Positions 4,936-60,950 of a DNA stretch of 64,000 nt are shown here, one piece after another (position 1 is the first letter of the stretch; the number at the start of each line of letters is the position of its first letter). The notes below the pieces were generated by a model that saw nothing but the letters and a program-made list of their open reading frames with translations, was not told the origin of the DNA and searched no databases. This DNA comes from a virus. The translations under genes and the position numbers were made by a program. Where the stretch lies: UHGV virus genome UHGV-2025275; one strand, written 5' to 3'.

Positions 4936-4966
4936 TTAAACAAATTGTTTTCTTGTTGGTGTTATT
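4936..4966. promoter_or_regulatory. motif-2 copy (AAACAA-A-TTGTTT palindrome) just upstream of the 567-aa MTase start
   Basis: ttaaacaaattgttttcttgttggtgttatt; one of >=7 dispersed copies. Confidence 0.5.
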
Positions 4967-5026
4967 TTCCCAAAGTTGAAAAGGCGTAAAAGCAGCATTC
5001 ACAGGCGTTGCAGCTGATTTAAGGCG

Positions 5027-5050
5027 TAAAAAAGGGGGCTTTCGCCCCCT
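5027..5050 (-). terminator. intrinsic terminator after 199-aa gene
   Basis: AGGGGGCTTTCGCCCCCT hairpin followed (minus strand) by T-run. Confidence 0.6.
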
Positions 5051-5066
5051 GTCGGCAGGTGAGAAA

Positions 5067-5666
5067 TTAGTGGTGTACGTGCTGCGTTTTGTGCGGCTGT
5101 TTGTTCAGGTCGTGGCGATGGGTCAGCTCGCGCATCATGTCTTCAAGACGGCTCTTGGTGTCGTCAAGCTGGTCGGCCATTGCCCCCAGCAGCTGGCGAA
5201 CGGCCATCGGATCGTCGCTGTTCAGATCAGGCATTTTGAACCCAGCCTGGGAAGACATCAGTTTGAAGGCGGCCAGCAACATCGCCAGAGAAGACTTCAG
5301 TCCGGCGATTTCGCGATCTTTGCTGGCGTTGGTTTCATCTGCCTTGACTGAATCCGGTGAGCACTTCGGCTTGCTTACCATTTCCAGAGTTGCCTGAAGT
5401 TTGTCGGCGCGTTCTTTCTCTTCCAGATACGCTTCGCCGAAATGACGCGCCAGCATCACAATTTCAATCGGATCATCAATCATGCTTGAGAACTTGAGAA
5501 CGCTGAAAAGGCGGTCGATAGGGGAGGCGTCGTCTTCGTGACCAACCACAAGACCCATGATCTCAACCAGTTCGGCCGCACCAACTTTTTTAATCACGCT
5601 TTCAACTTTGGCATTAGTTTTTTTGCATTTTTCGCACATGTGTTTTTTCCTTATGTTTTTAAACAA
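5067..5666 (-). CDS. hypothetical protein (199 aa)
   Basis: ATG with AAGGAAAA SD; motif-2 copy at 5659-5689 upstream. Confidence 0.6.
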   Translation of the reverse strand: MFKNIRKKHMCEKCKKTNAKVESVIKKVGAAELVEIMGLVVGHEDDASPIDRLFSVLKFSSMIDDPIEIVMLARHFGEAYLEEKERADKLQATLEMVSKPKCSPDSVKADETNASKDREIAGLKSSLAMLLAAFKLMSSQAGFKMPDLNSDDPMAVRQLLGAMADQLDDTKSRLEDMMRELTHRHDLNKQPHKTQHVHH

Positions 5667-5747
5667 GTTGTTTTCTCGATGGCGTTATTGTGGCGTGACT
5701 GAAAAGGTGGGCAAACGCTACGTAAAGGCGGACGCCCACACTGACGG

Positions 5748-6590
5748 TTAATGAAGACGTTTGGATTCCTCCATTTCACGTTCGACATGCTCACGACACG
5801 GCTCATACTCAATGGCGCTGGCGGTAATTTTCCCGGCAGCAATTAGCTTCACGGCAGCAAAGCAAAGTCCTTTAAAGGTGAACTTGGCCTGGTTGCGTCC
5901 GTTTCCGATGACAACGTTTTTGCCATATCCGCGGTCAATGAAGATCTTGAGGAACTGGCGGTTAACAGTGGTGTATTTGCGCTTAACGTACACATCACCC
6001 AGCGAGTCCATCAGCGCACCCAGAACAGCCCCGGACGTTCCGAGAATGCGACCAGCTTCATTCAGCCCATAAAGCTCATCAGCAGTGCCGCAAATGGTGT
6101 CCATGAGAATGGCTTTTGGCCTTGCCACCGACAGCTTGCGCTCAAGATCAGCACGCTGTTCTTCAAGATCGGCTGCCAGTCGAAGTGCTTCTGAAAAGGT
6201 TTCCGGGATGCTGGGGTAGGCACCGTAAAGCGCCCCGCTTGAAACACTCATTTCCAGCTCATGCCAGCGCTCAATGACAGCAGCGCGGTACTTCAACGAG
6301 TAGCCGGTAATGAGAACATCGGTATGCTTTCGGTCGAGCATGTACTCGCCTTCCATTCCCCGGTAATCGATGTTGACAACAATGCCTTCAACAATTGTAA
6401 GCAACTGATTTTTCTCATAACGCAATTTTGCGTTATGGTAATCGTCGGCATACAGCTCATTCAGCACGCTACGGATGTCGCGAAGAATGTCGCTGTGTCG
6501 TTTACCGGTCAGCTTTGAGATTTCTTTTGAGGACATCAATGGTCTGTCCGGGAGCACACCGGGAATCGATAAAGTAGTCATCTCAAACAT
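5748..6590 (-). CDS. phage antirepressor (N-terminal Rha/AntA-like domain, C-terminal KilA-C-like domain)
   Basis: MSSKEISKLTGKRHSDILRDI matches Rha family N-terminus; GGAGAA SD. Confidence 0.7.
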   Translation of the reverse strand: MFEMTTLSIPGVLPDRPLMSSKEISKLTGKRHSDILRDIRSVLNELYADDYHNAKLRYEKNQLLTIVEGIVVNIDYRGMEGEYMLDRKHTDVLITGYSLKYRAAVIERWHELEMSVSSGALYGAYPSIPETFSEALRLAADLEEQRADLERKLSVARPKAILMDTICGTADELYGLNEAGRILGTSGAVLGALMDSLGDVYVKRKYTTVNRQFLKIFIDRGYGKNVVIGNGRNQAKFTFKGLCFAAVKLIAAGKITASAIEYEPCREHVEREMEESKRLH

Positions 6591-6605
6591 ACATTCTCCA
6601 TTCAG

Positions 6606-6635
6606 TGTAAAAAGGGCCGTCAGTGGCCCTTGTTG
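6606..6635 (-). terminator. terminator/attenuator-like hairpin ~25 nt upstream of the antirepressor start codon
   Basis: AGGGCCGTCAGTGGCCCT followed by TTTTT on minus strand, lying between motif-2 copy (6658-6676) and ATG. Confidence 0.45.
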
Positions 6636-6698
6636 TTAACTCTCATTGGTTAATTGGCTAAACAATTTGTTTTAACAGTGCCGAAAATGGATTCGGCA

Positions 6699-6887
6699 TC
6701 AAAAGAACCCGAGAATGCTGCCCACCGGAACAACGAAAATTCCCACGACACGCGCAAGTGTCATTCCGGCATCAAACTGAAGATCACCACCGTTCACGAG
6801 TTTCACTAGATTCATGATCCAGCCACCAAGTAGAAAAATGGCGAGGCCAACAATCATCGCGGTGACTTTCCGGAAGGTCCATTTCAT
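6699..6887 (-). CDS. small two-TM membrane protein (62 aa), holin-like
   Basis: Two hydrophobic helices; ATGA overlap with upstream ORF. Confidence 0.5.
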   Translation of the reverse strand: MKWTFRKVTAMIVGLAIFLLGGWIMNLVKLVNGGDLQFDAGMTLARVVGIFVVPVGSILGFF

Positions 6888-7135
6888 GCAATAGCCTCAG
6901 TCACAGCAGAAGGAAGATCCGGAGTTGCAGGTCGAGTTGGAATCGTGTCCAACAGCATCCCATCCAGAGAGACAGGAGGTCGTTCTGGCAGGGGTGTCGT
7001 CTGCAAGGTTGTGGTGGAAGTAGTTGTGTCCGGTATCAACAGACTCTGACCGGCTGGTACGGCTACCGCTGCCAGGGTTGCTAAAATTACTCCGTAGGCC
7101 ATTGGCTTCAGTCGATTTCGTTGAAAATTTTCCAT
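6884..7135 (-). CDS. small protein with N-terminal TM/signal anchor and Thr/Pro-rich tail (84 aa); alternative frame to 6897..7391
   Basis: ATG preceded by AAGGACAG SD; stop overlaps start of 62-aa membrane protein. Confidence 0.4.
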   Translation of the reverse strand: MENFQRNRLKPMAYGVILATLAAVAVPAGQSLLIPDTTTSTTTLQTTPLPERPPVSLDGMLLDTIPTRPATPDLPSAVTEAIA

Positions 7136-7391
7136 GAGAACTGTCCTTGTGCGTCTGGGATTCACGCAACACACGAGAGGCGACGGAATCACGCACCTTC
7201 TCCATGCCTACTGTCGCACCCAGATTTGCTATGGCGGTAGCTTGCGCATCAATGCGCTTCTCCAGCTCAAACACTCGTTCTTCCAGTTCCGCAAGGCGTG
7301 CAGAAACACGACCGCTAAACAGCTCGGTCAGAACCAGGCGAATTGAACGGGGACGTTTATTGAAAGAAGTGAAAGGCGTTTGACGTGCCAT
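6897..7391 (-). CDS. hypothetical coiled-coil protein (164 aa); C-terminal half low-complexity, overlaps 84-aa ORF in other frame
   Basis: N-terminal 85 aa look protein-like (LAELEERVFELEKRIDAQ); weak SD; C-terminal S/T/G-rich stretch may be non-coding. Confidence 0.35.
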   Translation of the reverse strand: MARQTPFTSFNKRPRSIRLVLTELFSGRVSARLAELEERVFELEKRIDAQATAIANLGATVGMEKVRDSVASRVLRESQTHKDSSHGKFSTKSTEANGLRSNFSNPGSGSRTSRSESVDTGHNYFHHNLADDTPARTTSCLSGWDAVGHDSNSTCNSGSSFCCD

Positions 7392-7521
7392 TTGGATTCC
7401 ATTCAGTGTCAGAAAGAGTTGCGGCTGGCCAAGCCAGCCGCCTTTTGGCGTTCCATCCTGGAACAGTACCTAACCGGTACTTCGTCATCCTGACGAACGG
7501 TAAGATACCTGATTTAAAATG

Positions 7522-7541
7522 ATAGGTAAATACTTACCTAT
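7522..7541. promoter_or_regulatory. motif-1 palindrome ATAGGTAAATACTTACCTAT
   Basis: Near-perfect 20-bp palindrome, one of ~16 dispersed intergenic copies. Confidence 0.5.
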
Positions 7542-7799
7542 CATTTTGTGACAAAAATCCAATATCACGCTTGTGAGGCATATCAGCTGCGGAGTAGACG
7601 GCGATCTTCGACAGGCGGTCACACATTAAGTCGGCTTTGAGCGAGGAGCGGACGTTGACTTAGCCGGATCGCTTAGGGCTTTTAATATTACTGGCGCGGA
7701 TTTCTGGGATACTTTCAAGCTCTTTCCTCAACTAAAACGGAAAATTTCGGCGGACTTTCTACTAGATAGTCCGCCATTATAGTTGCTTTTATATAGTTA

Positions 7800-9482
7800 T
7801 TAATCAACCTTCCAAACGTTGACAGCTTGCTTTGACATCCATTTCTGAAAATCATTGACAGTTTCTAAATTCCACTCTGCATATTCAGTGACTTTTGAAG
7901 CCAGAAAATATCCAGATTTTGTATATTCTTTTTTCTTATCTTCAAATGATGAGCGCTTTAAGTTATCTTTATCCATTAAAATCATGTTTCCAAGCCTATC
8001 TTTTACATCATTAATTCCTTCACCAAAAGAATCGCACCATTCTTTTTCGGGGTGATAAGGACAAATATGTTCTAATGTGGTTTTTTCATAATCACATTGA
8101 TTACCTAAATGCCCCTCAATCTCAGAAAGTAAAAACCGTATTTTTTTTGCCGTTTGCCTACTTGGCATCCTATGAAACTCAAAAGCATTAAAGAATGAAT
8201 TATCATCAGGATACAAGCGTTTAAATTCTTCACTATTTTTTACATGACTAGCTCTTAAAAACTCTCGATTATAAACTTTGTTAGCAATTTGATTGTAAAT
8301 ATTCTCTTGCTCGCTGGGCGATAAGTGGCAAATAACGTTATAACGAATAGATAATACGTATAAATATCTTACGAGTTTAACAAACTCTTCAGGAGAAAAG
8401 TTACCGAAGGCAGCAAGGAATATCGTAAGTGGTTGCTTGATATTGAATAACCTTATTCCATTAAGATAATGCAAAACATTTCTGTATTTCTCATCTTGAT
8501 CTCCCCACCATGCATCATTAGGGTTAATCAATGATGCATAGATAGGTGAGTAGTCAATTAATGATTTTAAATACTGATACGCTTCTTCCGGTTTCGTTAA
8601 TATCTTTCTCATAGAGGAAAACAGGTTGTTCTTAGTGACCATTTTTCTCTGCGAGTTATAGTGATATCTAATGTAATCAGAAACATTGCTTTCGCCAAGT
8701 TGGACGATCATTTCTGACCATTGCTCGTCCAAATCATTGAGTTCATCTTCTCCGATTTGATCATCTTTTGTCACAATTGAGAATAAATAGTTCTTAAGTA
8801 GATCTGGGGTGGAAAGTTGAACACCTCTCGCATTCAAAGTTTCAAAAACTTTATAAGCATTAAGATCATCTTGCACTATTATCTTTGTGAAAACCATGCT
8901 CGAAGAAAAATCTGCAATGAACTGAGCAATATCAGCACCTGTTCTACCAAAATCTTTCTTAGTAAAAAAATCAAAACATTTTCTTATCAATTTATTAGTC
9001 GATGTTATACCTCGAGGATTTTGAGTCTCTAAATGCGATGACATTCTTTGAAAATAACTTTTATTGTTTCTATTTAGTTCTAATTTATTAATCACTTTGA
9101 GCGTAACGAAGTTCTTACTTCCTACAAAGTTTTGAGTTATACCATTGAGTCGCTCAGTGTTTCCCTCTACATCCTCTCCATTATCAATTAAGGTTTTGAT
9201 AGCTTTCATTGCAGCCAGAACTATAATCGATAACGTAACTAAACGTTGTTGCCCATCGATAATTTCATGTTGATACTGTTCTTTTTGCTGAAGGACAATG
9301 TAGCCCATATAATGGAACCCTTCATCATCAAGTGCATTTATATCCCCCCACAAGTCCTCCCATTGCCCCACATCCCATGCGTAGTCTCGCTGGAACCTGG
9401 GTACAATATATTTGTTTGGACCACCAATTAATTCATTAAAATTCTCATTTTTTGGTTCCATCAACATAAATTGCTTTGCCAT
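7800..9482 (-). CDS. DUF262 (ParB-like NTPase/nuclease) + C-terminal DUF1524 (His-Me finger) protein, GmrSD-like type IV restriction-like enzyme
   Basis: PRFQRDYAW … IDGQQRL (DGQQR motif of DUF262); C-terminal LEHICP…H region; gene markedly AT-rich vs neighbours. Confidence 0.65.
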   Translation of the reverse strand: MAKQFMLMEPKNENFNELIGGPNKYIVPRFQRDYAWDVGQWEDLWGDINALDDEGFHYMGYIVLQQKEQYQHEIIDGQQRLVTLSIIVLAAMKAIKTLIDNGEDVEGNTERLNGITQNFVGSKNFVTLKVINKLELNRNNKSYFQRMSSHLETQNPRGITSTNKLIRKCFDFFTKKDFGRTGADIAQFIADFSSSMVFTKIIVQDDLNAYKVFETLNARGVQLSTPDLLKNYLFSIVTKDDQIGEDELNDLDEQWSEMIVQLGESNVSDYIRYHYNSQRKMVTKNNLFSSMRKILTKPEEAYQYLKSLIDYSPIYASLINPNDAWWGDQDEKYRNVLHYLNGIRLFNIKQPLTIFLAAFGNFSPEEFVKLVRYLYVLSIRYNVICHLSPSEQENIYNQIANKVYNREFLRASHVKNSEEFKRLYPDDNSFFNAFEFHRMPSRQTAKKIRFLLSEIEGHLGNQCDYEKTTLEHICPYHPEKEWCDSFGEGINDVKDRLGNMILMDKDNLKRSSFEDKKKEYTKSGYFLASKVTEYAEWNLETVNDFQKWMSKQAVNVWKVD

Positions 9483-10422
9483 TTAATCAATTCCCGTTAT
9501 TTTAAAATGACGTCATCATAAGGCTGCTAATTATTAACAAGGAAATATGACGAAAGTTTGCATAATTTTGATGTACTATGAACAATTCAAGCATTAAAAG
9601 GGACTCTTGACGCTCGACTTCATAAAAGATAATCATCTAGGCAGCCTTGAGCAAGCTATAGAGTTGTTAAAAGTCATCCTATATATCTAAACCACTGTCT
9701 GGAGCAACTGTAACTTAGAGCGCGAACACTCAAGAATCCCCGCTGGTAGTGGCAACTTTTGACAATTCGCTCCCATCGCCGGTTGACTGGCCTGTCCTCA
9801 GTTGATTAACACATTTTGAGGTCAGCTATGTCCGCTTATGGCACATTGAAGACATTGCGATGGGCGATTTTTTTCTCTCGCGCGCGTGCGTGTAAATATT
9901 AAAAATGTTTAGAAAATAAAAACTTACTTCCCAGAACAGGTTTTAATAAAACCTGAACTGAACGAACGAAGTGAGTGAAGTTCACCTCGAACGAAGTGAG
10001 AGGTTGTCTTTTCAGGTAATACTCTCCCAGGGAGGTGAGTACAAAATCTCCTCACCAACCTGGTCGTTACATAACCTGAAAAGTTATGACCTAAGTCTAC
10101 TGCCAGCTTAGGCTTGGGAAGTTATGGATGACAGCACCCCAGAACCGAGATCTTCCCACACTTTATGAAGGGGAGTACTGGATTCAACCTCTCGAAACAC
10201 TCCAGACTCGACAATCATAAAGTGACCCTTCTCTCCGCTCACTTTGGTTCCCCCTTCCCCAACCCCTAAGCGGTGCCGGTTCTACGCTGGTAGTGAGCTT
10301 TTTTAAACCTGACGCCAGTGACGCTATCCCCCACCCATCAGGTCGAGCTGCCGGAATCAATCCGGAAAGCGAGTGGATTTTATCACTGGCGATCTGCGTT
10401 TTAAATGGTAAGTACTTACCGA

Positions 10423-11451: not shown

Positions 11452-11463
11452 TACTTTGCTTTG

Positions 11464-11483
11464 ATAGGTAAACACTTACCTAT
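11464..11483. promoter_or_regulatory. motif-1 palindrome ATAGGTAAACACTTACCTAT 13 nt upstream of dam start
   Basis: perfect palindrome arms TAGGTAA/TTACCTA. Confidence 0.5.
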
Positions 11484-16304: not shown

Positions 16305-16481
16305 ACAAGATAAGTAAGTACATACATATTATTTTATACAAGTTTATCTGTCAGAAGTGTGTAAGGCTAGGAGGGGAGTAAAAAAAATGGTGGCTCTTAG
16401 GCCACCATTGCAATGAGCAATTAAGAACTTGGACAATAAAACACGCCCAGGCAATATATAATGATAAGTAGATACTTACAA

Positions 16482-18605: not shown

Positions 18606-18641
18606 TTTAAACAAATTGTTATCTTATTGGTTTAAACAAGG
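18606..18641. promoter_or_regulatory. tandem motif-2 copies upstream of nrdB
   Basis: tttaaacaaattgttatcttattggtttaaacaagg. Confidence 0.5.
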
Positions 18642-18649
18642 TGCTCAAC

Positions 18650-20999: not shown

Positions 21000-21045
21000 G
21001 TATCACCCAATAAAAAAGGCCACTAAATATAGTGACCTCATGTTA

Positions 21046-21066
21046 ATAGATAAGTACTTACCTATC
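21046..21066. promoter_or_regulatory. motif-1 palindrome ATAGATAAGTACTTACCTATC upstream of nrdA
   Basis: between resolvase stop and nrdA start. Confidence 0.5.
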
Positions 21067-25625: not shown

Positions 25626-25853
25626 GTGTCTTTTCCTTTGTGGTTATTTTGATACAGATGTTAAGCGTGTTTGAGAGGCGAGCAACCCAGACAACACGGC
25701 ACAGAAGAAAATCTACAGGCACACGATTATGACAAAATATATAAGTAAGTGAATACCTATTTTATGAAGCGACATAGATTTCTAAATGTTACAAGCCACT
25801 CTATAATCGCAGTCACTCATTGATGACAACTAAACGAAAAAGGAGAACGGACG

Positions 25854-29969: not shown

Positions 29970-30185
29970 TCAGTGGATTTTCTTCAGCAGACCCCAGAGT
30001 GTCCCGGCCTTCGTCGTGAGCTTACCTGTTTCCGGATCGTACATGCGCCATTCGCGACGCTGGTGGACAATGACACCGTCCTCACGTTCCAGACGCTCCA
30101 GCACGCCGGTCTGCTTAAACCCTTTGGCACGCCAGTAGCCACTTGTTTTTTCGATTTCCAGACCTGCCAGTGTAACCGCCATCAA
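29970..30185 (-). CDS. hypothetical protein (71 aa)
   Basis: ATG ORF, overlaps start of next gene by 4 nt. Confidence 0.45.
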   Translation of the reverse strand: MMAVTLAGLEIEKTSGYWRAKGFKQTGVLERLEREDGVIVHQRREWRMYDPETGKLTTKAGTLWGLLKKIH

Positions 30186-30693: not shown

Positions 30694-30733
30694 GATAGGT
30701 AGATACTAACTTATATATTTTTTGCTGTAAATA

Positions 30734-31009: not shown

Positions 31010-31077
31010 GTGTCTTCTCCTTGTTGGTAAGTACTTATTTATATTAATGTGCGCCATGCGGCGCACAATCATTGTGT

Positions 31078-31861: not shown

Positions 31862-31962
31862 CCGTTGCCGAACAACTATGTGGCGTTGTCACTTTGTACT
31901 TCTACGGATGCTAATTCCGTATTAGTAACCAATTTGTTTTCTTGTTGGTGATAATACGGAAA

Positions 31963-33040: not shown

Positions 33041-33100
33041 GTGTTTCCTTTTGTCGTTTTGGTGTAGGAATGATAAGTAAGTGCTTATATATTTTCAAGT

Positions 33101-36510: not shown

Positions 36511-36629
36511 GTATTTCTCCTTGTTGTGATTGTGGCCATTGGCGCTATGCGCGTTGGGCGTTCGTTTATTCGTGGCTCTTTCGAGCGAGAAGAATGATAG
36601 ATCAGTACTTACTTACGATCTAGCATAAA

Positions 36630-43365: not shown

Positions 43366-43461
43366 GTGTTTTTCCTTACTGTTTGTCGTTCGTGGGGTAT
43401 ATCTTATATAAATATATTAGACTGCATAGTAAGTGATTACTTATTTTTACGGGTAAATCCA

Positions 43462-45847: not shown

Positions 45848-45872
45848 TTATTAAAACAATTTGTTTTCTGAT
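45848..45872. promoter_or_regulatory. motif-2 palindrome upstream of cobT-like
   Basis: ttattaaaacaatttgttttctgat. Confidence 0.5.
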
Positions 45873-45964
45873 GTGCGTAATTTATCACTGTACGAACAGG
45901 CAACTAAGCTGTTCGTACAGGCATCTAAGCTGTTCGTACAGGCATCTATAGGCAGGAATGTATT

Positions 45965-46177: not shown

Positions 46178-46440
46178 TTCATATCATCCAACTGAACACA
46201 TTTGAAAGTTCGGCAATACTACTACCTATTGTATCAATATGGAATGCACCTATATCAGATACGTCTTACTTTTTTCTGTAAGCGAATGGTGACAAATTGC
46301 TTAAAAACCATAGTATAATGGCGGTACACCGGGGTTTTGTGCCTATCGAAATTAAATAGATAAGTCTTTACAACCCTGGCCTTTGCTGTAATATCAGTAA
46401 GCACTTACCAGAGATAAACAAAACACGCAAGGTTCACTAC

Positions 46441-46827
46441 ATGGCTACCAACGAAACAGAGATCAAACAAGGTCGCTACGCAGCTTACATTGACTCGTTA
46501 ATCACAATCTCGCCTAAAAGTCAGGCTACCATTGCCAAAGAGGTTGGGTACAAGAACGCCAACAACCTCTCCCTCATCAAAAGCGGCAAAATCCCACTTC
46601 CAGTCGATAAGGTTCGAGCTTTAGCCGAAGCACTGGAGGCAGATCCGGTTCGACTGATGCTGATGGTTCTGGAAGAACGTCATCCTGAGCTGCTTGAGTT
46701 TTTTCGCGAAGAGGGCACTGCACCTCTCTCCGCTGATGAAAAACTCGTTCTAGAAGCGTTCCGTAACCGTTTTGACGGTCAACAGGGTGCGTCAGAAAAG
46801 GTGGTAGAAGCCATCAAGTCACTGTGA
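46441..46827 (+). CDS. putative HTH (XRE/Cro-like) transcriptional regulator
   Basis: SQATIAKEVGYKNANNLSLIKSGK helix-turn-helix-like; convergent with recombinase gene. Confidence 0.55.
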   Translation: MATNETEIKQGRYAAYIDSLITISPKSQATIAKEVGYKNANNLSLIKSGKIPLPVDKVRALAEALEADPVRLMLMVLEERHPELLEFFREEGTAPLSADEKLVLEAFRNRFDGQQGASEKVVEAIKSL

Positions 46828-47925
46828 GAAATTTACACGAATAAGCTCCGTGGCTAGACGATCTCCCTTGAATTTGTGGTCTATCTCGTCTAAGTCTGTT
46901 TGATTAACGATAGATGCGATGTACGTTGAGAAGTTATTCAAGGCGTCTCGCATCTCATCCATATAATCGTGGCGATCATAGACGCGATCTATCCCTTCAA
47001 GACTGTGGTTCATAATCTTACGGGCCACCTCCTGATTAATCCCCAGAGCAGGGAAATAACTACGCGCTGTACGTCTCAGATCGCGTGGGGTGAATGACTC
47101 AACCTCCATCAACTCAGGTCGTTCCAGTATCCTTCTCAGTGCCTGGGCAATGGCCACCTTAGACATTGGCGTATCCACGCCCTTCTTCTTATTCGAAGGA
47201 ACGAGCCACTGGCTGCCTTTCCCGTACTCAAACAACTCTTCTACGCATTGGCGCATCAATGGGCTTAACGGCAGCGCGTGCTGTCTGGCCGATTTGTTTC
47301 GCGTACCTTGATTCCATACATCACGTTGAAGGTTGAACTCATCCTTTCTGGCCCGGAGCACTTCATCGGGTCGTCTGGCGGCGACAAGACAGAGCCTGGC
47401 CGCCCACTTTGTGCCTTCGCACACATTGAAGTAATCCCAGACGTTCCAGAATACCCAGACCTCGGCGTCGGTCAGCTTACGTTCTCGCGGTACTGGCTTC
47501 GCGCCACCGGCAACTTTATTGAGCGACATATCATTCAACGGCGATGTATTAATCAGCCCCTGAAAAGCGCACCAGCTCAGGAACTGTTTCATTAGGGAGA
47601 ATACGCGTCTGCCCTGGACGATCTTACCTTCCAGTATCAGTGGGTTCACCAGTTGGTTGACCAAGACCCTACTTATATCACTTACCTTTACTTCAGAGAT
47701 ATGCGGCATTACATGTATCAAAACACAATGAACGGCTATTTCAGGTCGACGTCTCGTTATCAGTAAAGATAAGCGAGTGAATAACATGAAGGCGGAAGAA
47801 AACGACATGTCTCCGTCGAAATTGGCGGTCGACACTGCCGACAAACCGGAAGCGCGTTCGAGGTACTCGATGGCTTCCCGAGAGGTGTTTTCTGCTGCGC
47901 GTGCTTTATCAAAGGTGTTTTTCAT
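46819..47925 (-). CDS. tyrosine recombinase (integrase/resolvase family)
   Basis: …RDLRRTARSY… and HSLEGIDRVYDRHDY (R…HxxR…Y catalytic set); true start uncertain (internal ATG at 47709). Confidence 0.7.
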   Translation of the reverse strand: MKNTFDKARAAENTSREAIEYLERASGLSAVSTANFDGDMSFSSAFMLFTRLSLLITRRRPEIAVHCVLIHVMPHISEVKVSDISRVLVNQLVNPLILEGKIVQGRRVFSLMKQFLSWCAFQGLINTSPLNDMSLNKVAGGAKPVPRERKLTDAEVWVFWNVWDYFNVCEGTKWAARLCLVAARRPDEVLRARKDEFNLQRDVWNQGTRNKSARQHALPLSPLMRQCVEELFEYGKGSQWLVPSNKKKGVDTPMSKVAIAQALRRILERPELMEVESFTPRDLRRTARSYFPALGINQEVARKIMNHSLEGIDRVYDRHDYMDEMRDALNNFSTYIASIVNQTDLDEIDHKFKGDRLATELIRVNFSQ

Positions 47926-50882: not shown

Positions 50883-50902
50883 ATAGGTAAGTCATTACTT
50901 AT
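50883..50902. promoter_or_regulatory. motif-1 palindrome ATAGGTAAGTCATTACTTAT upstream of phoH
   Basis: intergenic, 48 nt from start. Confidence 0.5.
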
Positions 50903-50955: not shown

Positions 50956-52347
50956 TTATGCTTCATGTTGCTTTTTGAGATCGCTTCTAGCATAGCTCCA
51001 CTCAATAATGTTGTCGGGTCGTTGCTGATCGAAAAGGATTCGGGATTCAATACCATTACCTAAAAAGCTGGTATGCCCATCTACGTAAGAAGCTATCCCT
51101 TGCGAACCAACATGAAGAATATTTTCTAATGGTTGTTTTGTTCTCGCCGTATTGCTAAGGAGAAATAAACCTGGGTACGCTTTGTTAGCACGGTGAAAAA
51201 AAAGTTCATTGTCAAAACACATGACGATGATTATTTGTCCCGACATGAGATCGGAGAGCATTTCAGTTGGCAGATGCAAACTCATAAATGGCCGAGACAA
51301 AGGGTCAAAGAATGAATCGTTTATATTCACAACAGGGCTTTTTATATCGAGGCCATCCATCCATCCATTGAAGGCAACAAAACCCATTTTAGAATCACGG
51401 TACATACCTAAGAACAAACATTCATCAATAGTATCAATTGCCCAATTTTTTCCTCCGCGAATAATCTCCCACATTTTAACTAAACGGTGGGTATAAAACT
51501 CAGATGGATGGTCTATCTCATCGATTTTAACTTTAGATTGATGAAGATTGTCAAAGCCCTCGCCAGTATTAATCGCCTCCAGCACATTCATACCACGAAC
51601 GATTTGCCTTTTTATGCGATTAAATTGCTTAACATCATTTTCAGGCATATTGCTAATGAAGTTTTCTTCAAAGTTCGGACACTCTGAGATAACAGAAAAT
51701 TCGGCAGCTTCATAAAGCTCATTATTCTTTTTGCCTGTTTTAACTTCCACGAGTTGAAAGCCATCCAGTGGATTAAAGGTGACTAAATCCCCCACATGAA
51801 CAAATGTACTCATGTCAGAGACAATCGCTACGGCGTGTTTGTCCTGATTGATAAGATCGGCTGCGACCATAGAATCAATTATGTTATCTTCTGATAGATT
51901 GTCATTGCCTGTATTAATAGGTAAACGCCGCAAACTCGAGTGATCTTCATCAAGTATGCTCCAAATTAGTGAGTCAATACAACGGCGAAGAATAAGAATT
52001 TCAATTTTTTTTAAATTTATTTCATCAATACACTTTTCTTTCTTTTTTTTATCCTTGTTTCGATGATGCTCTTTTTTTTCAACTTCCAATTTTTTTATAT
52101 CTCGCAACCGAAAAATAATCTCAAAAGATATAAGTTTCTGTGCGTCTTTCCAATTTTTGAGACAGATTTCATACTCTTCAAGAAAAATTTCATCATTGGA
52201 AGGTTGTTCTTGAATTGGGTCTTCACCCCTTATCATTTTGGCAAGTGAATGCAGTTGAAATACAAAGTGAGGTGATAAAATTGTCCAAAATTTTCTAAAC
52301 GGTTTGTATTTTTCAATAAAAGTTGATTCGTCAGTATAATTTATCAT
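50956..52347 (-). CDS. AT-rich hypothetical protein (463 aa) with central PD-(D/E)xK-like nuclease motif
   Basis: …VHVGDLVTFNPLDGFQLVEVKTGKK… (D…E-V-K); own TATAAT-like promoter in 89-nt gap; ~30% GC. Confidence 0.6.
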   Translation of the reverse strand: MINYTDESTFIEKYKPFRKFWTILSPHFVFQLHSLAKMIRGEDPIQEQPSNDEIFLEEYEICLKNWKDAQKLISFEIIFRLRDIKKLEVEKKEHHRNKDKKKKEKCIDEINLKKIEILILRRCIDSLIWSILDEDHSSLRRLPINTGNDNLSEDNIIDSMVAADLINQDKHAVAIVSDMSTFVHVGDLVTFNPLDGFQLVEVKTGKKNNELYEAAEFSVISECPNFEENFISNMPENDVKQFNRIKRQIVRGMNVLEAINTGEGFDNLHQSKVKIDEIDHPSEFYTHRLVKMWEIIRGGKNWAIDTIDECLFLGMYRDSKMGFVAFNGWMDGLDIKSPVVNINDSFFDPLSRPFMSLHLPTEMLSDLMSGQIIIVMCFDNELFFHRANKAYPGLFLLSNTARTKQPLENILHVGSQGIASYVDGHTSFLGNGIESRILFDQQRPDNIIEWSYARSDLKKQHEA

Positions 52348-52436: not shown

Positions 52437-53306
52437 TCAGATATCTTCATACTGCACGTAAGAAATATTTGAGTCTCTGACATCATAATCTTCTAAGCTG
52501 CCTGACTTTTCCTCACCTCTATATAAAGCAACTATCCATCGAGCATTTTCTTGGATGCTTTTATTTATTTCAGCGAAGTATTCACCGTCAACTTCGGCAA
52601 GCGAATGGCCTAAAACAATGACCTCATCCACATTTTTAAGCGACGAGAAAAAAACGCTCTCTTCTTTAATTATGTTTTCGCTGGGCTTGAATGTATTACC
52701 GAAGTATTCGTCTATGCTGTCGTATGCCTCTGCTATTCTTGTATCTTGATCCGGCCCTATATATGGATTTAGTGACTTTTCAACCCTAAAACTGTGACCT
52801 AGTATGAGATCGTCATCGTAAATACAATTGCCGTGAATATGCATGATTTGCGCGTCTGGAACGGCATAGATCTGCTGCAAGGTATTGGTATAATTAAATG
52901 AAAAATAGAGGCTTTCTCTTGATATGGGCGGGATGTATTGCTCAGAATTGCAAGCATCGGTTATGTTAATCCCTTTAACCCAATCAGCGAATTGCTCCTT
53001 CAAGCGAGCTGACAGCATCCGTGTGATTTTATCTACTTCATATTGGTAATCGTGATGATAGGCATCGCTCCAATCATCGGTATTGTACGAAGCCAAAAAC
53101 ATCTCACTGTTTTGAAGGATAAGCTCATAATCAATTGCGCCTAAAGCACTTTCTAACTCGTTCCATTCGTCTCCAGCAGGCAGGTATTCTTCTATCGCGT
53201 CATATAGTTCTTGGTCATGTTTTGCTACATACGACTTAAAGTGCTTGTATCCTGTTGGCAAGCCATGTCGAATATCAAATCCGTTTCCTATTATGTAAAG
53301 CCTCAT
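52437..53306 (-). CDS. AbiH-family (abortive-infection-like) protein
   Basis: N-terminal MRLYIIGNGFDIRHGLPTGY…F, later FNYTNT and HIHG motifs typical of Pfam AbiH; start at internal ATG with AAGGG SD (ORF extends to 53420). Confidence 0.6.
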   Translation of the reverse strand: MRLYIIGNGFDIRHGLPTGYKHFKSYVAKHDQELYDAIEEYLPAGDEWNELESALGAIDYELILQNSEMFLASYNTDDWSDAYHHDYQYEVDKITRMLSARLKEQFADWVKGINITDACNSEQYIPPISRESLYFSFNYTNTLQQIYAVPDAQIMHIHGNCIYDDDLILGHSFRVEKSLNPYIGPDQDTRIAEAYDSIDEYFGNTFKPSENIIKEESVFFSSLKNVDEVIVLGHSLAEVDGEYFAEINKSIQENARWIVALYRGEEKSGSLEDYDVRDSNISYVQYEDI

Positions 53307-53676: not shown

Positions 53677-54686
53677 ATTATTCGCGGCGGTACTTGTTCA
53701 TGGACAACCAGGCAACCAAGAACTTTCCCGCAACTTGCACTTTACGTTAGTGCCAGACGAGGCTTGTGGCTCGCTCACATAGAGCGAAGATCTGGAATCC
53801 TTCTCGGCGGTTGATGGCCGCCAGACTCTTCGATCTTATTGTATGTATGGAATCATCCATGTTGTGAAACCAGGGGCTACATAGGCAACAATGATTTCAC
53901 CAGAGGGTTAAAGAATCCTGCTTTCACAACGTTGAGGCCACTGAACCGATTTATGTTCGACCCAACATATTGATCAGTCACTACAGCTCTGTGGAATCAC
54001 CTGTATGATTAAAAGAAAAACAGTGACCTCAACGTTGTGCGCTGGCTAACCAAGCCAGCCGGGTTACGTCGCCGCTTTTAACCCAAAATAAAACGACATA
54101 AGTAATGGAAATGACGTAACAGGATGGGCGGTCAGCTGTCTGAAACCGGGATGATGGAATGGAATGAGGAAACCAGCCGCCCATCCTGTTACTTCATCGA
54201 ATAGGGCATGGGTGGTGCAACATGCCCTATCCTGCGTTCTGCAAGGGGTGAGTTTGGAGATCGGAAATTATTGTACGTTAAGCCTGTTTTTTGAACAGAT
54301 CGCGCTATCGCAATAGGGTGTACTCCTGCACTATACGGCATTTAGCCTGTATGTTTGGGTAATGAGAAAACCTAAATGCGACAGCGTGAGCGCAATAACT
54401 TAAATGCGATAGTCAGTGACAATAAATCAATCAGTTACCAATCAGAAACGGTTAAATTATGTTCTTAACGTACAATAATTTCCGTTTCCCAAACCGACCC
54501 CTGCAATCACACTCGCTCAGTGTGTCCCATTTCGGTGACGAGGCTGGAAACTGACCTCGCTGGTGTTTGGCTTCTTAGGCTACTGCCAGGTACGTATCTT
54601 CGTTTGCAGTTATATTTAACGTTCAAACAGTCGCGTCTCAACGAAAACAAATGAATCTTATACATAATAGATAAGTAAGTAAATAC

Positions 54687-54992
54687 CTATTTTTCTGTAA
54701 CTCGTTCAGTTGCTATCTTTTTGATCAAGCTCACCTTCTGTTCTGGCGTTCTCGTGATGATGGCCGTAAAACGCTTCGCTTGAATAGTGATAGTTTCGTT
54801 CTCCTTCAGTTCGCCGTAGTGAGTCTCCAGCAGAGAACCCAGGCGCCACAGACCGTCATCTATGCGTTTATGGCTGGCAAATCTGATCAGCAGTAGCTTT
54901 ACGATTAACTGACCAATGTAAAAGGCATATCCGAAGCCGGCCGCCACAAGGTAGGTTGCCAGCCACCAGTCGAATGAGGTCAAATTGCTCAT
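54687..54992 (-). CDS. membrane protein (101 aa)
   Basis: N-terminal TM; stop codon embedded in motif-1 copy. Confidence 0.5.
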   Translation of the reverse strand: MSNLTSFDWWLATYLVAAGFGYAFYIGQLIVKLLLIRFASHKRIDDGLWRLGSLLETHYGELKENETITIQAKRFTAIITRTPEQKVSLIKKIATERVTEK

Positions 54993-55141
54993 TTCTGCAC
55001 TCCCGTCTCGTGAACAACCCGATACAGACGCTTACCGATGCGAAGCGTTTTGGTTTTCAGTTCCTGCCTGACCAGATCGCGACAGATACTGAAGCCGAGG
55101 GCCACGCCCCCAGCAAAAGATAATAGGATGTATGGAATCAT
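54989..55141 (-). CDS. small membrane protein (50 aa), paralogue of 55337..55513
   Basis: MIPYILLSFAGGVALGFSI…RIGKRLYRVV; TGATG overlaps at both ends. Confidence 0.4.
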   Translation of the reverse strand: MIPYILLSFAGGVALGFSICRDLVRQELKTKTLRIGKRLYRVVHETGVQK

Positions 55142-55353
55142 CAGAACGCCCCCGCCTCAGTCAATTGCTGCAACAGTGAGTGTCCTTTTTCAGTGAGTTG
55201 ATAGTTCTCCACACATCCCTTTGGCGAAACGTTAGCGACAAGATTCATACGTTCCAGTTTGGCGCGGGTCTTTGGCTTCCAGTTGGCATAGAACTCCTTC
55301 CACTGGCTGATTTCACGCAGAGTTTCTTTCTCCCGTTTACTTAGCATGATCAT
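55141..55353 (-). CDS. hypothetical protein (70 aa)
   Basis: ATG ORF. Confidence 0.5.
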   Translation of the reverse strand: MIMLSKREKETLREISQWKEFYANWKPKTRAKLERMNLVANVSPKGCVENYQLTEKGHSLLQQLTEAGAF

Positions 55354-56835: not shown

Positions 56836-56841
56836 TAGTGT

Positions 56842-57357
56842 TTAACCTCCATCGGTCGCTCGGGAGTTTTCATGTGTTTTTTTGGTTGCTTCTTCAATGA
56901 GTGCCGCGTACACGTCAGTGACGGGCGCCAGTGAATCGGTGGACGTGGTTTCGGGTTTGGCTGATTCTGTTTTCTTCGTGCGTTTAACCAGACTGTTAAT
57001 CGTCATGGTGTTGCGCTTCCGGGTAAGCGTTCTGGCGTGGTCGTTTTGCTCTTCCACTTCTTTGATAAGCGCAGCCATATCGATGAAGTAGAGTTGTTCG
57101 CCTTTGCGGATCTCTTCGACCATCATCTTCAGCGCCTGGCATTTTCCAGCAGCAATGGCCGCAGCGCAGGACTGGAACGATGTAGCCGGGAGACGCTTCT
57201 CTTTGTAGGCGAGGATGGTGTGCTGGCAGACTGTATAGCTGCAATGGGCCTCATGGCCGTTGATCTTCACTTCCGGGCAGCGCAGCGAATAACCGTTGTT
57301 TCCGGAGATAGACGGGATTTTCGACAAATCTGTTCTTGTGGACATGCTTCTAACCAT
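56842..57357 (-). CDS. hypothetical protein (171 aa) with Cys/His cluster
   Basis: CPEVKINGHEAHCSYTVCQH; start overlaps motif-1 copy so true start may be downstream ATG. Confidence 0.45.
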   Translation of the reverse strand: MVRSMSTRTDLSKIPSISGNNGYSLRCPEVKINGHEAHCSYTVCQHTILAYKEKRLPATSFQSCAAAIAAGKCQALKMMVEEIRKGEQLYFIDMAALIKEVEEQNDHARTLTRKRNTMTINSLVKRTKKTESAKPETTSTDSLAPVTDVYAALIEEATKKTHENSRATDGG

Positions 57358-57425
57358 AGTCGTGTACTTACTTATTGAGCGCAGTTTAAAAAAGCCCCAC
57401 CAGGGGCTAAATGGTTTATCGAGGC

Positions 57426-58220: not shown

Positions 58221-58300
58221 AAAGGTTCCTCAATTCCTTCTTCGCGCATATTCTTACAGAAAAATAAGTATATATCTACTTATCATTAGCGGCGTGCAAT

Positions 58301-59422
58301 TTATACAAGAGCTTTAATGCCGAGTACCTTGCTTTGTAGCTCCAACTGTCTGGAGTACGGCTTGGCACGATAATAGGCTTTGAGGATCTGCTCTGGCGTC
58401 GCGTCGCCAGGGTCGAGACCTTCCTCGCCCAGACAGGCCACTTTGACATTTAGTCCGATGCTGGTGAGACGTTTGGCCGCCGACATGGTGTTGCGAATTG
58501 CTTGTTTCTCGCTATCCCACATCATGATGACGTTGCGTAATCCACGCGCCTTGAGCGTCAGGAACGCGCCCAACTGATCTTCAGCGTCCTCATTCATATT
58601 TCCGGACAAGTGCATCCCGAACGTGCCAATTGGCTCCACGTAATCACGCAGCGTCTCTTCGTCGAAGATGGCTCGCTTCACGCCCATTACGTCAAATGCC
58701 CCTTCACACACAACGACCGTTTGCTTTCCGACTGCGTTGTGGCCGTTGTAGAGAAACTTGCCCGACGCCGGCAACTGCATTGGGAAGAGATATCGGCGTT
58801 CTGCTGCGCCGGTGACGTCACGCCCCTGGAATGTCTTCATCACCCCATTCAGATCGTAAATCGGTATCAGGATGCGCATATCGAATGCCTGCCCTTTAAC
58901 CTGATCGGTATATGGGTCGACATAAGCATGTTTTCCCTCGACGCAGTAACGCAGGTCAAAGTATTTGGCCAGTTCCGGGCTAATGTTCCGCTCAACAAGA
59001 TAGTCCGGCAGCCGACCGTCAATTGGTAGTTCATAATGCCGCGGTAAAGCCACCGGGCCTTCAAGTTCCACAGCACTGGCCAGCACAACCTCTTCTTTTT
59101 TTGGCGCCCAACCTTGAGACAGGAGTGCGTTATGTACGTATTCCTCGAAGGCACGACGAGACTTACCGCTGTAGTGTTTGAGGAAAACCAGCTTATTAAA
59201 TTGAATTTCTTCTGGGTGATCACCGGCGAAGCATTTCCCGACGTTGTTGGTCAGGTTGAAATAGACCTTCCAGTTAGTGCTTCCACATACCGGACATTCT
59301 TTGATATTCACTTCGCGGCCGCGGGCGCTTACACCGCCGCGACGATAGATGATGCCTTCCATATCCAGCCATTGTTCGAAATCCAGCTCGGACAGTAACT
59401 CTTTGAGGTCACTCATTGTCAT
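58301..59422 (-). CDS. DnaG-type DNA primase (Zn-finger + TOPRIM)
   Basis: CPVCGSTNW…KCFAGDH zinc ribbon; VVVCEGAFDVMG and MMWDSE TOPRIM acidic motifs. Confidence 0.8.
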   Translation of the reverse strand: MTMSDLKELLSELDFEQWLDMEGIIYRRGGVSARGREVNIKECPVCGSTNWKVYFNLTNNVGKCFAGDHPEEIQFNKLVFLKHYSGKSRRAFEEYVHNALLSQGWAPKKEEVVLASAVELEGPVALPRHYELPIDGRLPDYLVERNISPELAKYFDLRYCVEGKHAYVDPYTDQVKGQAFDMRILIPIYDLNGVMKTFQGRDVTGAAERRYLFPMQLPASGKFLYNGHNAVGKQTVVVCEGAFDVMGVKRAIFDEETLRDYVEPIGTFGMHLSGNMNEDAEDQLGAFLTLKARGLRNVIMMWDSEKQAIRNTMSAAKRLTSIGLNVKVACLGEEGLDPGDATPEQILKAYYRAKPYSRQLELQSKVLGIKALV

Positions 59423-59568
59423 TTACCGCAGTTTTTAAAAGGCAATATCTTGATAAGCCTCGTTTTTTGAATACCATAAAGGCTCATGTGTTTTTCCTTT
59501 TGTGATTAAACAAAAGGTAATTTTTAAGGGCGTGGGGCTGTTATCCGTCTTTGCCCCACGCCTATTTT

Positions 59569-60909
59569 TTAAAGAACTTCCATGATCCGCTCGATGAAGC
59601 GCATCTGTTCGAGGTTCTGCTTAACGCGAATACTCACCCCGCCCTTCTGGTTACGAGAACCAGCAAAATAGAGTCGTGCTTCGCCTTTGGCTTCTTCCTC
59701 CTCAGTCTTGTTGATAGTGATGACTAAGTCGGCAATACGGACTTTTTCGATATTGTCCGCGGCGTGCATCATGGTGGCCACTTCGGATGAACCACCTTCA
59801 CGGTTGGTCTGGGATGCCGTGATTCCTGCAACGTTGTGCTTATCGTAGAGAGCACGCAAATCGGTGTAGATAGAGCGGATGTTCGCCCGGTCGTCACGGA
59901 GGTCGTAACTGGCTCGCATCAAGTCCGCATAGTCGACCACCACCATATCCGGGATCATACCATTCGCTTTCATGCTATTGAGCATACGATCCAAATCTGC
60001 AGGCGACATGCTTCCTGATGGGCGCTCAACCACCCACAGATTCCCTACCCCTTTCGTCGCGCCAAGCTCTGCGAGTTTCCGGTGAACGTCGTCACGCTGC
60101 TCTACCAGCTTTGACATCTCCGTTTCAGACAGCCGTGCATCGAAGCGATCGGAGAGAATCGAGGTATGCACTTCGAGAGAAAGATACAAAACGTTGTAGC
60201 CGGCCAGCGTTGCGTTAATGGAGAACTCCCCCATCGCTGTCGATTTACCTGATTTCGCAAACCCCATGAAGAGCACCATCTCACGTTTCGCCCAACCTTT
60301 TTGATAGAGCATACGATCCAGCAGCGGAAGACCGGTGGTGATGCTGTTCGGCACGTAATCATCAGAGGCTTCATATTCACGGGCCTTGTAACGTTCCGCT
60401 GCAGAGGCGTAATAGTCATAAATGCCCGTCGCTTCGTTAGAACCGATCTGCTGCACTTTGGCCATGATGGCCATCGCCCCCTGGAAGTCGCCCTTCTCCT
60501 TCATCTCGGCCGCTTTAATCAACGCATCGTCGAACGCTACACTTTTAGCGAACGTTGCAACTTGGTCGACCATGTAAGCCGTATCAGAGAGTTTTTCCGA
60601 GAGCACCCGCTTAAATGCCGCCACAACGTCCGGGAACATCTCTTCTCTGATCGTCTTATCGCGTTTAGCACGCTTCAACATATCGAGGATGGCAGCCGAT
60701 GAAGGCGCGCTCTTATACATTCTGAAATAGCCCGATACCATGTTCACCAGTATGGCGTTCGCCGCATTGGAGAATTGGTTGGGGGCAACCAGATCGCCGG
60801 CACGAGTCAGAAACTCATGATCGCGGCAAAAATACGCCGCCAGACGATTCTGGAAGTCGTCGTCGAACTCTTCAGACAACCCTCGTCCCGTGTGGCAAAG
60901 TTCGGTCAT
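59569..60909 (-). CDS. DnaB-family replicative helicase
   Basis: Walker A GFAKSGKST, RecA-like C-terminal domain, N-terminal helical domain. Confidence 0.8.
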   Translation of the reverse strand: MTELCHTGRGLSEEFDDDFQNRLAAYFCRDHEFLTRAGDLVAPNQFSNAANAILVNMVSGYFRMYKSAPSSAAILDMLKRAKRDKTIREEMFPDVVAAFKRVLSEKLSDTAYMVDQVATFAKSVAFDDALIKAAEMKEKGDFQGAMAIMAKVQQIGSNEATGIYDYYASAAERYKAREYEASDDYVPNSITTGLPLLDRMLYQKGWAKREMVLFMGFAKSGKSTAMGEFSINATLAGYNVLYLSLEVHTSILSDRFDARLSETEMSKLVEQRDDVHRKLAELGATKGVGNLWVVERPSGSMSPADLDRMLNSMKANGMIPDMVVVDYADLMRASYDLRDDRANIRSIYTDLRALYDKHNVAGITASQTNREGGSSEVATMMHAADNIEKVRIADLVITINKTEEEEAKGEARLYFAGSRNQKGGVSIRVKQNLEQMRFIERIMEVL

Positions 60910-60927
60910 GTGTTTGTTATCCTTTGG

Positions 60928-60950
60928 TGCTTAAACAAGTTGTTTTCTAA
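60928..60950. promoter_or_regulatory. motif-2 palindrome upstream of helicase gene
   Basis: gcttaaacaagttgttttctaat. Confidence 0.5.

Follow-up and report, generated by a model that had tools for sequence, protein, structure and literature searches.

The 64,000-nucleotide stretch of the virus genome UHGV-2025275 analysed here (the window) carries a dispersed 17-base palindrome, GAAAACAAnTTGTTTAA, that is a genuine, conserved and previously undescribed operator-like element of SSU5-group phage-plasmids. We give it the working label class B and read it on the transcribed, mostly minus, strand. Full-text literature searches returned no earlier description of the motif or of SSU5-group lysis-lysogeny control. 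Somewhat in preference to the alternatives weighed below, we read class B from its sequence features as a cis-acting DNA operator for an element-encoded, probably dimeric repressor, which would keep early genes silent in the plasmid-prophage.

The class B consensus is a 17-bp dyad of 8+1+8 bases, GAAAACAAnTTGTTT(A/T)(A/C), with a 6+1+6 palindrome as its inner core. In the 64-kb window, the core AAACAANTTGTTT has five exact matches (4938, 5661, 6660, 45854 and 60933) against 0.01 expected, and nine matches, where 0.07 are expected, come from the 17-mer with at most two mismatches. We built a symmetrised weight matrix from the window and SSU5 copies; with a strong-site cut-off score of at least 14, it finds 10 strong sites (Table 1) where composition-preserving shuffles give 0.2. 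When true ATG starts are used, 10 of 10 are intergenic; the non-coding share of the window is only 10.5%. The gap between motif and start codon ranges from 10 to about 80 nt, and the sites at 18607 and 31925 have one core mismatch each.

An earlier note on this DNA, made from the letters alone, had listed seven copies and suggested that their enrichment be checked. The motif is present at all seven of its coordinates, the excess of strong sites is clear (10 against 0.2 expected), and the genes named as downstream (methyltransferase, 199-aa gene, antirepressor, nrdB, 129-aa gene, cobT-like gene and DnaB) are correctly assigned. Its count of at least seven holds but is an understatement, as three additional copies (409, 460 and 2388) had been overlooked. 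It gave a spacing of 15–80 nt before the start codon; the shortest gap measured is 10 nt, at the methyltransferase gene. What it called a tandem at 18606–18641 is one full copy plus one half-site (TTGTTTAAAC, 18630–18639) and not two copies.

The window belongs to an SSU5-group phage-plasmid. In a megablast comparison it shares 95.8% identity with Salmonella phage SSU5 along part of the query, and about 80% with Escherichia phage Cyrano and with Klebsiella phage-plasmids; its gene order is that of SSU5 genes 038 to about 098, reversed. SSU5 has 20 class B copies with at most one core mismatch, and Cyrano has about 18. A divergent Klebsiella lineage has 13 copies in 40 kb, and the degenerate Yersinia pestis plasmid pFra/pMT1 has 7 (intact sites in pFra, NZ_CP151628, at 36706, 50840, 62952, 63003, 63495, 72386 and 72411). 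The promoters shared among these relatives are those of terS (two copies), parA, dnaB, cobT, the NinX-like gene, nrdB, the antirepressor gene or its replacement, the methyltransferase gene and a series of small genes; in the divergent Klebsiella lineage, cobT is without a class B site.

Conservation extends to more distant relatives at dnaB and parA. Contigs with a DnaB of only 70–80% identity retain the motif before both genes where the flanks cannot be aligned. Lineages with fully diverged flanks have no conserved blocks at these genes other than the motif and a few promoter bases; at the parA promoter these are TTAGGCTATA and the motif, and the class B site there is kept in five lineages. 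Conservation at orthologous promoters of related elements had been set beforehand as the test that could refute the motif, and the outcome is retention of the motif amid diverged flanks. In a pattern scan of viral contigs, all contigs with multiple copies are SSU5-like, and a second, unrelated phage group with the dispersed motif was not found. Other contigs have one or two isolated copies each; their DNA is AT-rich, and these copies are consistent with chance.

A Moellerella plasmid of the SSU5-like group (NZ_CP093251) is without the class B dyad apart from a single degenerate copy close to parA, and no alternative dispersed dyad was found to replace it. Genes like FljA, CYRAN_37 and CYRAN_62 are also absent from it. 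Its homologous promoter cassettes (e.g. 52997–53130 and 51661–51790) consist of a -10 hexamer, an 11-nt gap and GAAAACAA, with the right half of the dyad missing; the form is cctatctgctggtggCATAAT, 11 nt, GAAAA(A)CAA. This plasmid is a natural negative control for the search for a binder. At the other end, pFra/pMT1 is a decayed SSU5-like element that retains CI-like repressor, cro-like and FljA-like genes and has a P1-type ParAB in place of the type-Ib partition module.

Class B sites are placed with respect to promoters in a small number of ways. Sites collected from all loci give 288 unique contexts and 110 unique 17-mers; many are orthologous variants, and the contexts are not independent. 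The upstream profile of the leader-type sites (n = 134 unique), each followed by a ribosome-binding site and a start codon, has a -10 hexamer, gaTAAT, that spans -17 to -12 relative to the motif, with T in 85% at -12 and TG in about 40% at -20/-19. The motif ends 9–57 nt (median 18 nt) ahead of the start codon. From the position of the hexamer, transcription would start about 5 nt before the motif, which places the motif at roughly +5 to +21. Judged by their hexamers, these are sigma-70 promoters, often of the extended -10 type. A simple sigma-70 consensus scan does not call the class B promoters, because their -35 elements are weak.

In another 35 unique sites, all inverted, a gap of exactly 17 nt separates the motif from a GATAAT or GAAAAT downstream of it, and gaps of 16 or 18 nt do not occur. 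Usually a second site stands 11 nt after the same -10 hexamer, so that the promoter is bracketed by two sites whose centres are 51 bp apart; the pair 460/409 is the example in the window. The placements at nrdB (site over the -10) and dnaB (site 2 nt past the -10) are unlike the leader type. By strict criteria, a canonical -10 stands at the standard distance in 37% of the 288 unique contexts, against 9% of shuffled flanks, and a further 20% are of the upstream type; 45% are neither. The earlier note had favoured an operator overlapping promoters or 5' leaders, and the geometry bears this out: relative to -10 hexamers, the motif is placed downstream, on top, or upstream at exactly 17 nt. The promoter-associated placements all fall inside the RNA-polymerase footprint (about -55 to +20), as for classical operators, with the antirepressor and terS copies as exceptions. 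We rejected the motif as a -35 element or activator site, as most copies lie downstream of the -10, and likewise a leftward promoter for the inverted upstream sites, whose mirrored hexamers are poor -10s.

The symmetry of the motif could be read at the level of DNA or RNA. Over the six inner pairs of the 110 unique 17-mers there are 78 one-sided breaks, 5 G-U changes and 2 compensated changes. The RNA hairpin of the motif has a folding energy of 0 to -1.7 kcal/mol, typically -0.7, with z-scores near 0 relative to shuffled sequence. The half-sites thus appear to decay independently, as expected for a dimeric DNA reader, and with deviations that are one-sided and uncompensated and a hairpin that is negligible, a DNA operator fits best. 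Two-sided conservation without covariation, fixed spacing to the -10 and sites outside the leader together point to a dimeric DNA-binding protein rather than an RNA structure. An RNA hairpin or 5' stabiliser was rejected on the negligible folding energy and the lack of covariation.

A single-stranded RNA target is a separate alternative. The element would then act in mRNA as a leader sequence with an A-rich and a U-rich part, close before the ribosome-binding site. An FljA-like protein bound to it would block translation and make the message unstable, in the manner of Salmonella FljA on fliC mRNA. The FljA family is known for post-transcriptional action on a 5' leader (PMC2652032). Outside the window, the element encodes an FljA-like protein (Pfam Flag1_repress, E = 3e-81) that is expressed in Cyrano lysogens. 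SSU5, Cyrano, pFra and the divergent Klebsiella lineage, which share the motif, all have its gene, and Moellerella, without the motif, lacks it; among open reading frames found in SSU5, pFra and Klebsiella but not in Moellerella, it is the only one annotated as a regulator. This phyletic test, however, depends on a single negative lineage. An AlphaFold2 model (predicted local distance difference test, pLDDT, 83.6) has two tandem Hfq/Sm-like domains, with a Foldseek target-normalised template-modelling score of about 0.8 to Hfq. The Foldseek matches to Hfq have a root-mean-square deviation of about 1.2 Å over 57 residues, which fits the post-transcriptional action of FljA.

The position of most sites, 9–57 nt before start codons and in a single orientation, would also suit an RNA target, as would the sites that lie inside operons without a promoter. 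However, a single-stranded RNA site would give no reason for exact dyad symmetry, C6/G12 pair included, and the hairpin is too weak and without covariation. The 35 sites fixed 17 nt upstream of a -10 are outside the leader of the gene they precede, and the sites at nrdB, over the -10, and dnaB, over the transcription start, track promoter elements and not the ribosome-binding site. The fliC leader, taken from an E. coli genome, reads AATCAACGACTTGCAAT; it resembles the motif only loosely, is spaced differently, and lacks the motif itself. We consider it unlikely that the palindrome is the target of the FljA-like tandem-Hfq protein, with a genome-wide regulon controlled post-transcriptionally, or at both DNA and RNA, through an Sm-fold protein. 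If it were, FljA, the phase-variation repressor of Salmonella, would have arisen by domestication of a global regulator from phage-plasmids.

The DNA-operator reading suggests the following mechanism. Operators would sit inside the RNA-polymerase footprint of the sigma-70 promoters of a defined set of operons. In the window, these would be the operons of the DNA methyltransferase, the 190-aa gene, the Rha-type antirepressor, nrdB, the NinX-like gene, cobT/cobS/polymerase and DnaB; elsewhere in the element, they would be those of parA, terS and a hyperplastic block of small genes. Most of the promoters, with GATAAT-like -10 hexamers (TG extension in about 40%) and weak -35 elements, would fire on naive infection with no activator. 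Repressor on the operators would prevent polymerase from binding or from escaping the promoter, and the genes would stay off in the plasmid-prophage. Some promoters would be held by a pair of sites, the first over the -35 and the second at +5.

Published expression data are largely consistent with silence of these genes in the prophage. RNA-seq of an E. coli LF82 lysogen of Cyrano, grown overnight in lysogeny broth, has a median normalised count of 9.8 (S1 table, PMC9928086). Genes directly behind the motif have counts of 7.1 (terS), 7.8 (cobT), 5.7 (CYRAN_58), 12.9 (nrdB), 7.0 (CYRAN_85), 7.1 (CYRAN_87) and 7.5 (CYRAN_101) (PMC9928086). Most genes behind the motif are thus at background, and only the parA operon (50–89) and dnaB (21) are clearly higher. 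Good, often TG-extended, -10 promoters that are silent in lysogens point to repression, and we infer both repression and protein binding at class B sites.

Repeated promoters could also spread a palindrome that no dedicated trans-acting factor reads. Class B would then belong to a promoter cassette that is mobile and copied about a hyperplastic genome (order: terminator, site, extended -10 promoter, site), retained as initial transcribed sequence or recombination microhomology like the promoter-early stem-loop cassettes of T4-type phages. The whole unit of about 85 bp, including the spacer t[ag]cctttt...TGnGATAAT..., does recur with fixed spacing, and such units flank many small, variable genes. 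The Moellerella cassettes, which keep the -10, the 11 nt and GAAAACAA and have no right half, suggest that the left half is constrained independently of the dyad. However, the full dyad is conserved alone at dnaB, nrdB, parA and terS, in differing architectures and with diverged surroundings, and its two-sided conservation without pairing covariation points to a reader protein. Good -10 promoters that stay silent in lysogens would also need a repressor. A cassette without a reader is very unlikely in our judgement.

If class B is read by a protein, several candidates encoded by the element can be compared. Our leading, still tentative, guess is a small protein whose gene follows that of the type-Ib ParA, beyond the window; by analogy, it would be a global regulator like KorB or omega. 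The promoter of this par operon carries a class B copy. The protein has a count of 89 in Cyrano lysogens, is 90–100% identical across about 740 plasmids and has an invariant SRTMS strand and an invariant FTRSDVIRAAI helix; from its sequence, the fold is probably ribbon-helix-helix. A search for homologues outside SSU5-like elements found none, the one match being a truncated remnant beside an insertion sequence, and a scan for more distant ParA loci gave close relatives only.

The window also encodes a CI-like helix-turn-helix repressor. The earlier note had called for a search for such a gene and had likened the motif to the scattered C1 operators of phage P1, so that class B would be the operator set of the prophage master repressor. 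One CI-like gene is indeed present (46441–46827), divergently oriented from a 70-aa cro-like gene, and it is the only clear helix-turn-helix repressor in the window; its own control region is without a class B site. The protein is 66% identical to CYRAN_45, which the authors of the LF82 lysogen study propose as the master repressor of Cyrano (PMC9928086) and which is expressed in lysogens (96 against the median of 9.8). Its putative recognition helix, YKNANN(L/I)SLIKSGK, is the same in the window and Cyrano, nearly so in the Klebsiella lineage, and different in Moellerella (YTAHNNISMIKSGK), where the motif is absent. Among the few lineages compared, Moellerella has a diverged CI-like repressor and no dispersed sites, and SSU5 has the sites without the repressor. 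The class B site at 45852 is about 600 bp from the gene.

Several findings count against a C1-type regulon. In the 263-bp control region of the CI-like gene (46178–46440), no class B site reaches a score of 7. The blocks that the window and Cyrano share there are other sequences, among them a conserved promoter (TTTACA, 16 nt, TAATAT) with GTAAGCACTTAC, which is the core of another palindrome, just after the -10; CTGTACGAACAG repeats are local candidates for the operators of the gene. SSU5 lacks a CI-like orthologue yet keeps 20 intact sites, and Moellerella offers no substitute dispersed dyad. In addition, a second palindrome, not class B, precedes most other operons of the window. These observations do not support a P1-like master-repressor regulon, and the CI-like protein is an unlikely reader of class B.

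Three copies of a repeat of about 21 bp with CTGTACGAACAG / CTGTTCGTACAG occupy 45885–45950, in the interval from the cro-like gene to the cobT promoter; the third is in inverted orientation and extends over the -35 region. SSU5, Cyrano and pFra each retain a single copy, and Moellerella has an inverted pair. The repeats may serve the CI-like repressor as operators or the adjacent integrase as a site.

Other small proteins of the element offer less to go on. The 70-aa homologue of CYRAN_37 is a candidate because it is absent, like the motif, from the Moellerella relative; from its sequence we infer a winged helix. The homologues of CYRAN_37 and CYRAN_62 have no family assignment, and their lysogen counts of 6.4 and 13.4 are near background (PMC9928086). 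A CYRAN_117-like protein (92 aa, expressed in lysogens) was rejected as the binder, as its N-terminal strand varies among lineages that share the motif.

A binder supplied by the enterobacterial host would account for a motif that is invariant across elements from Escherichia, Salmonella, Klebsiella, Kluyvera and Yersinia and missing in one relative from a different family, Morganellaceae. Against this, unrelated viral contigs have only isolated, chance-level copies in AT-rich DNA. To our knowledge no enterobacterial regulator has this consensus, and of those we considered (PurR, KdgR, IHF, Fis and the PhoP box) none fits; we count this against a host protein, although host chromosomes were not scanned. 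A host reader of the site appears highly improbable.

Several observations weigh against a DNA operator read by an element-encoded repressor, and some of them against the partition protein in particular. The parA (50) and dnaB (21) genes are above background in lysogens despite their class B sites (PMC9928086). By the strict criteria, 45% of the 288 unique contexts have no canonical -10, and the antirepressor and terS copies have no recognisable promoter; at promoterless copies, the site would have to be a roadblock or act on RNA. Most sites are in 5' leaders, 9–57 nt before start codons, which a model at the RNA level explains too. As for the partition protein, Moellerella has it, with the same putative DNA-contacting residues, without dispersed sites, and pFra has 7 sites without the protein. 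No match supported its fold: the AlphaFold2 model has a pLDDT of 64, and neither Foldseek nor a PDB profile search found anything.

Individual sites in the window illustrate the range of placements (Table 1). The two-site promoter at the left end precedes a minus-strand homologue of CYRAN_101, from about 397 down to 125 (tblastn match 397–125); site 460 covers the -35 region of this minus-strand promoter, which it shares with site 409 (centres 51 bp apart). Site 4936 has an extended -10, TGg-GAAAAT, at 4964–4969 and an orthologous site in SSU5. Site 5659 has a -10 CACAAT at 5687–5692 and orthologous sites in SSU5 and Cyrano. Site 6658 precedes a gene with a Pfam Phage_pRha match; a canonical -10 is absent, and a terminator-like hairpin (6612–6633) lies between site and gene, a layout that is the same in SSU5.

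At nrdB, site 18607 overlaps the -10 TAAGAT (18621–18626), with a -35 TTGAGC at 18643–18648 and a 16-nt spacer. An A3-to-T deviation is kept at this site in the window, SSU5 and Cyrano, presumably because the T is the last base of the -10. The 129-aa gene behind site 31925 has a Pfam Phage_P22_NinX match, and the site has orthologues in SSU5, Cyrano and pFra. So does site 45852, whose -10, ATAAAT (45880–45885), lies within GTGATAAAT. The dnaB promoter, a conserved one, has TTGATC (60972–60977), a 16-nt spacer and TACGAT (60950–60955), which ends 2 nt before the site, so that the site would cover the transcription start.

The site at 2388 faces the other way. Its promoter (2371–2404; GATAAT, 11 nt, site) is on the plus strand and would give antisense RNA to a 242-aa, Ead/Ea22-like gene (2450–3178). 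On the minus strand, according to a terminator scan, the T-rich half of the site comes after a 12-bp terminator hairpin (2399–2426) and forms the T-tract of the terminator of the 242-aa gene. Terminator-like T-run hairpins also stand between palindrome and gene at 6612–6633 (class B, antirepressor) and at 21015–21040 (the second palindrome, nrdA), and a hairpin follows the two class B copies before terS in SSU5. Such hairpins hint at attenuation or antitermination control.

The second palindrome, with a consensus of about TGATAGGTAAGTACTTACCTATCA, is more numerous than class B. The two alternate between neighbouring genes: nrdB and cobT have class B, and nrdA and cobS have the second palindrome. 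In SSU5 the second palindrome is also found between structural genes. Its right flank gives a TATCAT -10, with no -35 evident, and it may mark an activator-dependent promoter or be another operator. Its core, GTAAGnnCTTAC, resembles the SlmA-binding site, GTGAGTACTCAC. Elsewhere in the window, two minus-strand open reading frames (7800–9482 and 61872–63635; 560 and 587 aa) have about 35% G+C, against about 50% in the rest, and no counterpart at these places in SSU5; they look like acquired accessory or defence cargo.

Table 1. Class B sites with a weight-matrix score of at least 14, candidate regulators and copies of the second palindrome (window coordinates unless a locus record is named)
Feature	Position	Strand	Remarks
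Class B site GAAAACAACTAGTTAAG	409..425	-	Weight-matrix score 14.4; putative downstream operator of two-site promoter
-10 GATAAT of two-site promoter	437-442	-	11 nt upstream of site 409
Class B site, inverted	460..476	.	Weight-matrix score 18.3; exactly 17 nt upstream of GATAAT 437-442
Class B site	2388..2404	+	Weight-matrix score 22.1; GATAAT 2371-2376 lies 11 nt upstream
Class B site	4936..4952	-	10 nt before ATG (4925) of DNA methyltransferase/DUF4942 gene
Class B site	5659..5675	-	19 nt before ATG (5639) of 190/199-aa gene
Class B site	6658..6674	-	67 nt before Rha-domain antirepressor gene (5748-6590); flanked by two hairpins
Class B site GATAACAATTTGTTTAA	18607..18623	-	30 nt before nrdB ATG (18576); half-site 18630-18639
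Class B site GAAAACAAATTGGTTAC	31925..31941	-	Follows TATTAT (31951-31956); 63 or 81 nt before NinX-like 129-aa gene
Class B site, perfect 17-mer	45852..45868	-	17 nt before cobT-like ATG (45834)
Class B site	60931..60947	-	21 nt before DnaB helicase ATG (60909)
CI-like helix-turn-helix repressor, 128 aa	46441..46827	+	Weak Pfam HTH_31; PHROG 'transcriptional regulator'
70-aa protein, CYRAN_37 homologue ('putative transcriptional regulator')	55141..55353	-	No Pfam match; candidate binder
CYRAN_62 homologue, small protein	29970-30185		Absent from Moellerella
FljA-like protein CYRAN_114	780-1301 in locus record		Pfam Flag1_repress
FljA-like protein SSU5_121	46897-47343 in locus record		Pfam Flag1_repress
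Second palindrome	7523-7540, 10402-10418, 11465-11482, 16311-16328, 16465-16478, 21043-21064, 25742-25759, 30696-30713, 31024-31037, 33074-33091, 36602-36615, 43426-43443, 46394-46407, 50884-50901, 54672-54689, 58265-58282, 61711-61728		

Phage-plasmids of the SSU5-like kind are very common among Enterobacteriaceae. The SSU5-like marker genes searched are present in about 800 PLSDB plasmids, which include Y. pestis pFra/pMT1 and S. Typhi elements such as pHCM2. These phage-plasmids can carry resistance genes (PMC9600943). The motif defines a mutable regulon of replication, nucleotide metabolism, partition, antirepressor and small accessory genes, and the 17-bp sequence can serve as a direct bait for finding the regulator. 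The two-site extended -10 cassette is a compact, portable and probably repressible promoter. If the partition protein is the binder, prophage silencing would be linked to plasmid maintenance; if the FljA-like protein is, the link would be to an Hfq-fold protein.

Class B can be compared with several known systems. In P1, a plasmid prophage, the DnaB-type helicase is ban, the C1 operators are asymmetric and the c1 gene has its own operators. Class B is similar to the C1 set in that many copies of one 17-bp site stand at dispersed operon promoters of a plasmid prophage, including that of a DnaB-type helicase, with the presumed role of keeping lytic functions off. It differs in being a perfect dyad that is absent from the control region of the CI-like gene. 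T4-type promoter-early stem-loop cassettes combine a terminator hairpin with an early sigma-70 promoter and flank small, variable genes in hyperplastic regions. The class B unit is likewise a repeated terminator hairpin and early sigma-70 promoter beside small, variable genes, but it holds a conserved dyad that also stands alone at core replication and partition promoters.

Partition proteins can double as global repressors: KorB of RK2 binds 13-bp palindromic OB sites and omega of pSM19035 binds heptad repeats. The phage-plasmid N15 has four separate, single palindromic IR centromere sites. Class B resembles these systems as a 6+1+6 palindrome at many promoters of a low-copy replicon, one of them at the par operon. 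Unlike them, the SSU5-like partition protein is unrelated in sequence to ParB/KorB and follows a type-Ib ParA, and site and protein are not consistently found together (pFra has sites only, Moellerella the protein without dispersed sites). With Salmonella FljA, the shared features are a true family member encoded by the element and sites that mostly lie just before the ribosome-binding site; the fliC leader is without the motif, and dyad symmetry and upstream sites are a poor fit to an RNA target.

The repressor of mycobacteriophages L5 and Bxb1 has 20–30 operator or 'stoperator' sites in short intergenic gaps, some not associated with promoters (PMC6550527). Stoperators are 13–14 bp long, lack dyad symmetry and depend on orientation (PMC6550527). 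The class B copies at terS and the antirepressor gene are similarly not promoter-associated, but class B has dyad symmetry, and a -10 at fixed geometry accompanies most copies, a minority being promoterless. By analogy, class B would work most like the dispersed operator sets of P1 C1, the operators and stoperators of L5 and the OB sites of KorB.

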